A DNA stretch of 64,000 nucleotides from Escherichia phage vB_EcoM_ECO78. The notes under the pieces were generated by a model that worked only from the letters and a program-made list of their open reading frames with translations, did no database searches and was not told where the DNA came from. The stretch lies in the sequence record PP526941.1, one strand, 5' to 3'. Made by a program: the position numbers and the translations under genes. Positions 43,885 through 48,211 of this stretch are shown piece by piece; position 1 is the stretch's first letter; each line of letters opens with the position of its first letter.

Positions 43885-44101
43885 ATTGTTTTTCCGTTAA
43901 AACAGTAATATCGTAGTAACAGTCAGAAGAAGTTTTAACTGTAGAAATTTTATTATCAAAATACTCACGAGTCATTTTATGAGTATAATACTTTTTACCA
44001 TAAATGATAATAGGTTGTTCTGGTCCTGGAACTTCTAACTCACTTGGGTTAGGAAGTGTAAAAAGAACAACGCCAGAAATATCTTTAAATCGTAAAATCA
44101 T
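43838..44101 (-). CDS. hypothetical protein (position of T4 nrdA.2)
   Basis: 87-aa ORF, ATGA-coupled to td. Confidence 0.45.
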
Positions 44102-44958
44102 ATTGCCATTTTCCCTTTAATTGCTGGATGCGATTCATAATTTTCAAGGATAAAATCTTTCGGTTTCATGTATTCAGTTAACCAGTAAAGCTGTGTTTCG
44201 GTGTCACAATTTCCAAACTCTATAGGCCAATCAATTTTAAGTTCACATAGTTCTTTAGGCTCACGACGTAAAATTTCTTTACATTGCTCAGTATGATTCA
44301 TATAGATGTGAGTATTACCACCAGAAAATATCAAATCTCCTGGGATAAGATTACACATCTTAGCCACAATATGCGTCAAGGCAGCGTACGAGGCAATATT
44401 GAATGGCAAGCCCAAGAAAACATCTACACTTCTTTGGTACCATTGTAAATCAAGATAACCATTACGCACATTAAACTGATAGAACATATGACAGGGCGGT
44501 AATGCCATTTGATTGATTTCAGCTGGATTCCATGCTGAAACGATTTGACGTCGATCAGTTGGTAATTTTTTAATACGATCAATAGTTTCAACTAATTGAT
44601 CCACACCACCGAAATCACGCCATTGTTTACCGTATATAGGACCAAGTTCACCACTATGATATCCTAGGTCTTTAGCCTGGTTTTCATAGTTATCGTCCCA
44701 AATAGTTTTACCTTGAATAAGACTACCATGAGTGCGAAGACGTAAATCATTAACATTGGTAGAACCGGAAATAAACCATAGAAGCTCAGCAATGCATGCA
44801 TTCCAGGCGAGCTTCTTAGTCGTTACTGCAGGAAAACCTTTAGTTAAATCCCAGCGTAATTTAGTACCGAACAAAGCAATTGTTCCTGTGCCCGTTCGGT
44901 CATCGGTTTCATAGCCGTTTTCAAGAATGTCTTTAATTAAATCTTGGTATTGTTTCAT
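44098..44958 (-). CDS. td: thymidylate synthase, uninterrupted
   Basis: 286 aa contiguous ORF; classical ThyA active-site region ([15 protein letters not shown]). Confidence 0.95.
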
Positions 44959-45002
44959 TTAGCACCTTATATAAATTATAATACATTTTATGAAGCTAAT
45001 AA

Positions 45003-45362
45003 TCAATACGGTTTAGCATCAAATTTTCTTTCAATTTCAGGCGTAAAATACAATTCTTTACCACGCTTGGAAAAGCGACCAATAATATGATAATTATTCT
45101 CATCAAACGTGATATTGCCGATATCCATAGCTTTCAACCAAATATCGATATTTCTGTCAAGCTTTATATCAAAATTCCAATATGGAGAACTATTACCAAA
45201 AATACTACAAGCGGATTCAGTGAAACAACTGCTATAAATCTTGTCTTTAGGAACTACTAATTGATAGACACCTTTAATAAACTGAGGACCCTGCCATTTT
45301 GGTTGTTTCGCGTCTTTTTCTAATAGAATAGGGTAATAATTAAAATTCATATTTTCCGCCAC
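45003..45362 (-). CDS. hypothetical protein inserted between frd and td
   Basis: 119-aa ORF with ATG start; no motif recognised. Confidence 0.55.
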   Translation of the reverse strand: MAENMNFNYYPILLEKDAKQPKWQGPQFIKGVYQLVVPKDKIYSSCFTESACSIFGNSSPYWNFDIKLDRNIDIWLKAMDIGNITFDENNYHIIGRFSKRGKELYFTPEIERKFDAKPY

Positions 45363-45370
45363 GTGTTATT

Positions 45371-46197
<827 letters not shown>

Positions 46198-47302: not shown

Positions 47303-48211
47303 TTAAAGGTCATTCAAAAGGTCATCCAGGTCCGTGTCATCAGCACTAGATGAACTGCCAGAGCTTGAGCTCATAAAATCATCTTCAGTTTTTGTATTGA
47401 AGTCATCAACATTGAATGCATCCAAATCATCAGCAACTTTATCAGCTTTCTTAGCAGCAGTTGCTGCGGCCCCGCCCATCACAGCAGTTCCCATGACTTG
47501 ACCGAATTTAGTGCTCAGTTCTTCAAACGATTTGAATTTATCTTTAGAAGTCATTTCAGAAAGGTCAACCATTTGTTCGAACAGTTCTTTCTGGAAAGAT
47601 TCATCGTCAATGTTTGGAATCGCAGATTGATTCAGAAATTTAGATTCATCGTAGTTACTAAATCCAGAAACTTGTTTAACTTTCAGTACAAAGTTAGCAC
47701 CTTCCCACGGACAAGTTACATCAACCGGAGTTTCACCCATTTCAACATCAACTGCAATCATTGCATTGATTTTATCCCAAATTTTCTTACCGAAACGGTA
47801 TTTAAATACTTTACCTTCATTTTCTGGAGCAGCTGGGTCTTTTACAACAAGAATGTTAGCCCAGTAAGAAGTTTTACGTTTAACAAGACTGTACTCTTTA
47901 TTGTCAGTGTTGTACAGATCATTTTTACTGATGTATTGACATACTGGGCAAGAATCGTAATCACCGTGGGTAGATGAACAGTTTTCAATATACCATTTAC
48001 CATTTTTCTTGAAACCGTGATTTACAAGAATTGCGAATGGTGCTTGTTCATCATTTTTAGACGGAAGAAAACGAATTACTGCTTGACCGTTACCCGCATT
48101 GTCGAGTTTCAGTTTCCACTCGCCTTTATCTTCAGAAGAAAAACCACCTTTATTTCCAGCCAGTTTAGCCATTTGTGCAGCGAGTTCAGCAGTAGATTTA
48201 CGTTTAAACAT
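47303..48211 (-). CDS. 32: single-stranded DNA-binding protein gp32
   Basis: 302 aa; sequence recognised as gp32 (zinc-binding region [15 protein letters not shown], acidic Ser/Asp-rich C-terminus). Confidence 0.96.

Follow-up and report, generated by a model that had tools for sequence, protein, structure and literature searches.

A small gene between frd and td of T4-like phages is very probably an old resident of its slot that phage T4 has lost

Between the genes for dihydrofolate reductase (frd) and thymidylate synthase (td), the 64,000-nucleotide stretch of Escherichia phage vB_EcoM_ECO78 analysed here (the window) carries td.1, which is very probably a genuine small protein gene of the already catalogued family phrog_1928, an old resident of the frd-td slot and a gene that T4 has lost. 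An ORF had been predicted at this junction from the letters of the window, and its frame, coordinates and both spacings were verified: an uninterrupted 119-codon frame occupies 45003-45362 on the minus strand, bounded by frd and td, with its first codon 8 nt past the frd stop (TGA, 45373-45371) and its own stop (TGA, 45005-45003) 44 nt short of the td ATG (44958). The original prediction was mistaken in giving the 119-aa frame a proper ATG, as its first codon is GTG (45362); the first ATG, at 45350 and 20 nt past the frd stop, gives a protein of 115 aa (MNFNYY...). In the Mosigvirus phage SF, the frd TGA directly overlaps the MNFNYY ATG and the GTG position is absent. The same position is CTG in Shf125875 and ATG in Ozark, and the gene is annotated as 115 aa in the T2H, T6 and FriedrichMiescher records. 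Judged from the SF overlap, the CTG of Shf125875 and the 115-aa records, the conserved start is ATG 45350 and not the GTG. The CDS from this ATG covers 45003..45350 (minus strand; 115 aa plus stop) and is backed by an HMM match as well as by synonymous-only differences. When copies are compared, the four extra in-frame codons of the 119-aa version (GTG GCG GAA AAT; 45351..45362, minus strand) are probably a 5' leader, in which a weak Shine-Dalgarno-like GGCGGA is located 5 nt upstream of the ATG.

The upstream neighbor, frd, encodes 193 aa (45371..45952, minus strand) and is annotated as dihydrofolate reductase in all matching records; the downstream neighbor, td, is a divergent allele that encodes 286 aa without an intron (44098..44958, minus strand). 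The minus-strand order runs from gene 32 (47303-48211) through homologues of frd.3, frd.2 and frd.1 and an 81-aa ORF to frd, td.1 and td, and is continued by homologues of nrdA.2 and nrdA.1 and then nrdA. Like td.1, the genes frd.1 (DUF5417), frd.2, frd.3, nrdA.1 (DUF4326) and nrdA.2 are small, uncharacterised and syntenic between the enzyme genes of the 32-frd-td-nrdA region, and are conserved across T4-like genera; unlike td.1 they are kept in T4, and they have no sequence kinship to it. The 81-aa ORF (45952-46197, minus strand; phrog_3183) stands immediately upstream of frd, has one base in common with the frd start and is named 'similar to RB32ORF231c' in Shf125875. T2, T6 and others have this ORF and T4 does not, frd.1 being directly followed by frd there; by this comparison, it is a second gene of the cluster missing in T4. 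No td.1 paralogue was found elsewhere in the 64-kb window or in 12 kb of T4.

Td.1 matched the phrog_1928 profile with E = 9.5e-36 (residues 8-115 aligned to positions 2-125 of the 126-position profile). In GenBank, the gene is named td.1 in T2H (AY262132.2, ABI48932.1) and RB32ORF229c in RB-series genomes; the T2H copy is the same gene, with 95% nucleotide identity, the same frd-td position and no material difference. The exact 115-aa protein of the window occurs in 341 public contigs, always labelled 'hypothetical protein'. A 551-bp junction query found 518 phage records, 358 of which contain the whole of td.1 at 90-99% identity, and tblastn with the protein gave at least 90% identity in 362 records, including T2, T6, RB14, RB32, RB51 and PP01. 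About 360 Tequatrovirus and Mosigvirus records hold td.1 between frd and td. The original prediction would have fallen to an equivalent ORF conserved at this position in T4 and all relatives; the distribution at the junction bore this out for most T4 relatives and not for T4 itself.

To measure selection on td.1, substitutions were counted by the Nei-Gojobori method with the window copy as reference. The T2 copy differed by 18 synonymous and no non-synonymous substitutions (dS 0.36), and the same pattern was seen in T6 (17 and 0; dS 0.33), Ozark (18 and 0; dS 0.36) and FriedrichMiescher (15 and 0; dS 0.29). Three Mosigvirus copies showed 24-27 synonymous and 9 non-synonymous differences, an omega of about 0.05; omega in the same comparisons was 0.02-0.21 for frd and 0.02-0.10 for td. 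At the level of sequence comparison, these data show that td.1 is protein-coding and that its minus-strand frame is under very strong purifying selection; the short plus-strand ORFs within it are noise. Few small ORFs of the region are as constrained in sequence as td.1, the protein of which is unchanged between phages with a divergence of about 30% at synonymous sites.

Orthologues with 26-63% identity lie between the DHFR and TS genes of Kanagawavirus, Roskildevirus Cronus, Klebsiella T4-like phages and Marfavirus, as well as of two metagenomic T4-like contigs (L016 and L017), and td.1 is syntenic across at least six genera. Several of the non-Tequatrovirus loci contain a second, tandem member of phrog_1928, and a more distant paralogue adjoins frd in Serratia phages and EcS1. 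Amino acid identities to the window for td.1, frd and td, respectively, were 45%, 50% and 81% in Kanagawavirus, 36%, 50% and 75% in Cronus, 35%, 46% and 76% in the Klebsiella phage, 31%, 48% and 79% in Marfavirus, 63%, 49% and 83% in L017, and 26%, 51% and 60% in L016. By these values, the divergence of td.1 appears comparable to or below that of frd in most of these loci, with td much more conserved. The idea that the ORF is accessory cargo held in part: T4 relatives differ in whether they have the gene, which is dispensable, but its orthologues in the same slot of other genera speak against an insertion.

The two genes of T4 (NC_000866; frd end 145109, td start 145112) meet in a 4-nt ATGA overlap with nothing between them, as the original prediction had stated. 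The accompanying view that the ORF was inserted is not supported by the junction either. The window contains two copies of a 9-bp direct repeat, TAAATGAAA, of which the left (45369..45377, minus strand) spans the frd stop and the right (44953..44961, minus strand), 416 bp from the left, spans the td start. Dropping one TAAATGAAA copy together with the intervening DNA, a deletion of 416 bp, reproduces ...GTATATAAATGAAACAATACC... of T4 at every base. A deletion between the flanking repeats would leave exactly the junction seen in T4, and T4 is therefore the derived state. The simplest history would be an ancestral frd-td.1-td order followed by a microhomology deletion in the T4 lineage. Right after the frd stop, the left repeat copy also contains a mini-frame, ATG-AAA-TAA, in which codons 1 and 2 of td are followed by a stop; it resembles a remnant of an overlap of the frd/td type.

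Tequatrovirus-like phages have three alleles at the frd-td junction: td.1, an unrelated 68-aa ORF (phrog_9550), or nothing, as in T4. Since the 68-aa ORF occupies the same slot with overlapping start and stop, the junction appears to behave as a three-allele cassette site. This ORF shares bases with the frd stop at its start (ATGA) and with the td start at its stop (TAATG); about 150 records have it, among them those of pSs-1 and JS10-type phages, and examples are those of Yersinia phage fPS-65 (L008:1648-1854) and YUEEL01 (L009:2648-2854). In Mosigvirus SF, Td.1 is 94% identical to the window protein and the adjacent frd is 60% identical, which implies, as far as these identities can be read, a recent exchange of the td.1 cassette between Mosigvirus and Tequatrovirus. 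The td.1 copies of Mosigvirus PHB12, Shf125875 and SF (L012, L014 and L015) have about 90% DNA identity to the Tequatrovirus gene, and the frd beside them is as low as 62% identical. The junction polymorphism is a clear case, found in nature, of microhomology deletion and of cassette replacement between translationally coupled genes.

The occurrence of td.1 was also compared with that of the td intron and its endonuclease, I-TevI, by chimeric BLAST queries, in which all counts are raw database records uncorrected for redundancy or phylogeny. Among about 515 junction-bearing records, about 362 were td.1-positive and about 205 td-intron-positive; td.1 and the intron occurred together in 79 records, and the 68-aa ORF and the intron together in 58. 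In these raw counts, about 22% of td.1-positive records (79/~362) have the intron, versus about 80% of td.1-negative records. Mutual exclusion of td.1 and the intron is ruled out by the 79 records that have both. This skew, together with the tight linkage of td.1 to td as the target, would be expected if Td.1 were an immunity factor that shields the neighboring td from I-TevI cleavage and so from invasion by the intron, a role we consider extremely unlikely. T6 is among the phages that carry both td.1 and the intron, and the T2 Td.1 protein is identical to the window copy, yet T2 is the classic homing recipient; Quirk et al. (1989) reportedly found that it receives the td intron efficiently when crossed with T4. 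Immunity to I-TevI was rejected on the ground that T2 has td.1 and still receives the intron. The association has a simpler account in linkage. About 0.6 kb separates the junction from the I-TevI cut site, and flanking exon DNA is co-converted when the td intron homes (review PMC2988022); because of this proximity and co-conversion, we infer that td.1 tends to be overwritten by intron donors whose own junction is of the T4 type or holds the 68-aa ORF. Loss of td.1 may be driven partly by such co-conversion.

The td gene of the window (44098-44958, minus strand) is only 77% identical in nucleotides to the exons of T4 and 79% to td of T2, with T2 and T4 about 95% identical to each other. Identity is at least 90% over the first 180 nt and falls off thereafter, which marks a recombination breakpoint inside the gene. 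Several positions differ in the stretch that matches the I-TevI homing site. A search of the whole window (1-64000) against Rfam at the gathering score returned no RNA family, consistent with an intronless td here, unlike in T4.

The 44-nt gap between td.1 and td holds a promoter-like element (44975..44999, minus strand; recognized as a sequence pattern), in which the MotA-box-like TTAGCTTCA (44999-44991) is followed after 10 nt by TATAAT (44980-44975); the earlier claim of such an element before td was thereby confirmed. In the consensus of T4 middle (MotA-dependent) promoters, a MotA box, (a/t)(a/t)(a/t)TGCTT(t/c)A, precedes a TAnnnT -10 element by about 12 bp. Relative to this consensus, TTAGCTTCA has A instead of T before GCTT and stands 10 nt from TATAAT or 12 nt from TAATTT. 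A sigma-70-like TTGATT-N17-TATTAT (45006-44978) overlaps the MotA-box-like element. Loose matches to the MotA-type pattern numbered 29 in the window versus 18 +/- 3.7 expected, only a mild enrichment, and the putative promoter in the gap is plausible, if unproven. The block is conserved with small indels in five other aligned Tequatrovirus copies; about 30 nt of it are missing from three Mosigvirus copies, in which the td.1-td gap is 13-15 nt. In Tequatrovirus, this promoter-like block of about 30 nt could give td its own start. A Shine-Dalgarno-like AAGGTG for td is located at 44963..44968 (minus strand). In other genera, the start and stop of td.1 overlap or abut frd and td, an arrangement consistent with co-transcription and translational coupling. 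We infer that td.1 would be an early or middle gene, transcribed together with its neighbors frd and td and presumably translated by coupling or re-initiation after frd.

The homology searches that had been called for identified the protein family and little beyond it. Apart from phrog_1928, no usable match was found for Td.1 or 14 relatives in Pfam, NCBIfam, PADLOC or the PDB sequences; none of the 15 family members scored below E = 0.07 in Pfam, and the match of one member to a methyltransferase model in PADLOC (E = 0.019) was taken as noise. The original prediction that the ORF is neither GIY-YIG nor HNH agrees with the lack of a Pfam, NCBIfam or PDB sequence match. An exhaustive phmmer search of 1.84 billion representatives recovered just 16 related clusters of about 100-116 aa, and a paralogue-inclusive profile search of 5.8 billion proteins recovered 24 stand-alone proteins of 113-148 aa. 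No domain fusion was present in either search, all matches being stand-alone proteins of 100-148 aa. On a Klebsiella-phage-like contig (OR941409.1), one 195-aa called protein (P0015; L018:3501-4088) consists of the C-terminal portion of a phrog_388 nucleotidyltransferase followed by the final 34 residues of the Klebsiella-phage td.1 orthologue. The td and nrdA genes around it are fragmented, and P0015 was rejected as a true fusion since the contig is rearranged or misassembled.

An AlphaFold2 model of Td.1 built from a 15-sequence alignment reached pLDDT 80 and pTM 0.75. It predicts strands at residues 10-16, 31-38, 52-54 and 66-68, a helix at 72-80, and strands at 84-86, 90-100 and 103-108. 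Fold-match lists were non-significant and consisted mostly of OB-folds (HIN, Teb1, S1, RPA, SSB, Stn1 and RecO), with a few CheW-type barrels and no nucleases; against viral models, good matches were limited to uncharacterised proteins of T4-like phages, including a Cronus neighbor and Aeromonas phage proteins. OB-folds are five-stranded closed beta-barrels with a helix between strands 3 and 4; the model may resemble the OB-fold domains of RPA, SSB, S1, Teb1 and HIN in being small and beta-rich with one helix between the third and fourth strand regions. With low confidence, Td.1 may be a non-catalytic single-domain beta-barrel of OB-like topology. Seven residues are invariant in 15 orthologues and paralogues (Q16, W19, G27, G91, F93, K95 and G97 in 115-aa numbering). 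They make up two elements, of which Q-x-x-W lies in the loop that follows strand 1 and G-x-F-x-K-x-G in the hairpin at the C-terminus. The signature comes from the present analysis, and the window protein has both of its parts. In the model, the invariant aromatic and basic residues appear to be placed in correspondence with the L12 and L45 loops of OB-folds. Most family members are mildly basic (pI 8.5-9.4). The 15-member alignment contains no invariant D, E, H or C, and the lack of an invariant acidic, His or Cys residue argues against a metal-dependent enzyme and against the homing endonuclease label.

That label, 'putative homing endonuclease', is found in records of BASEL collection phages, and several features of the locus are those expected of a free-standing homing endonuclease or another selfish mobile cassette aimed at the frd-td junction. 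The gene is present or absent between conserved genes, as are the seg, mob and hef endonuclease genes of T-even phages; it adjoins the td intron/I-TevI locus and is flanked by 9-bp repeats, and Mosigvirus td.1 is far closer to the Tequatrovirus copy than the adjacent frd is. We nevertheless regard this explanation as very improbable. The seg, mob and hef products are nucleases, whereas Td.1 has no nuclease motif, fold or invariant catalytic residue: Pfam, NCBIfam and the PDB sequences gave no GIY-YIG, HNH, LAGLIDADG or PD-(D/E)XK match, and neither a metal-binding candidate among the invariant residues nor a nuclease fold match was seen. At 115 aa, Td.1 is also shorter than the homing endonucleases annotated for the T4 region (I-TevI, 245 aa; MobE, 141 aa). 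The family diverges in place to 26-45% identity along with its flanks, which is vertical behavior, and the 9-bp repeats are simply the frd stop and the td start.

Taken overall, the best explanation is that Td.1 is an ancestral, dispensable, non-catalytic binding protein co-expressed with DHFR and TS, a statement to which we assign about an even chance. Its binding surface would be formed by the two invariant elements, Q-x-x-W and G-x-F-x-K-x-G, at the positions of the OB L12 and L45 loops, and the likeliest ligand would be nucleic acid, or else a conserved partner among the phage proteins for nucleotide synthesis or replication. As drawn from the predicted model, such a binding mechanism is a tentative proposal, possible but more doubtful than the explanation as a whole. 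A narrower form, in which Td.1 is a beta-barrel adaptor of the thymidylate-synthesis module that tethers DHFR and TS to each other, to the replication or dNTP machinery, or to nucleic acid, is quite unlikely. If the adaptor reading were true, the tandem paralogues in other genera would be a two-subunit version of it, and Td.1 would have gone unfound since the model phage T4 deleted the gene. T4 being the reference for T-even biology, this deletion would have made td.1 invisible to sixty years of genetics.

Alternatively, Td.1 might be a small early protein that neutralizes host immunity or a takeover target, kept where the host factor is met and lost elsewhere. Many small T-even early ORFs have proved to have anti-defense or host-modulating roles, and this general precedent fits a protein that is small, stand-alone and confined to phages, encoded by a dispensable, polymorphic gene with three junction alleles in Tequatrovirus and with lateral exchange between Mosigvirus and Tequatrovirus. 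We consider this role somewhat unlikely. Td.1 has no similarity to anything in Pfam, where known sponge and inhibitor families are included, and its slot is fixed in at least six genera with different hosts. A dN/dS of about 0-0.06 with 100% protein identity at dS of about 0.3 is unusual for an arms race; such near-zero values would be a better fit to a housekeeping-type partner than to an arms-race protein. td.1 could turn out to encode either a protein that interacts with the host or a hitherto unrecognized accessory factor of nucleotide metabolism in phages.

Our literature search found no functional study of td.1, RB32ORF229c or phrog_1928, or of the gene in the frd/td context. As td.1 is already annotated in hundreds of genomes, what the present analysis adds is its evolutionary context and the removal of wrong labels. 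Across several records, the gene is called 'putative glucose-1-phosphate adenylyltransferase', 'dihydrofolate reductase' or 'putative homing endonuclease' (MN580668.1, PV287714.1, OQ466432.1, MZ501066.1, MZ501113.1 and MZ501067.1). The labels 'glucose-1-phosphate adenylyltransferase' and 'putative dihydrofolate reductase' are without any profile support. In the complete T2 genome (LC348380.1), td.1 is unannotated and td itself is called 'hypothetical protein'.
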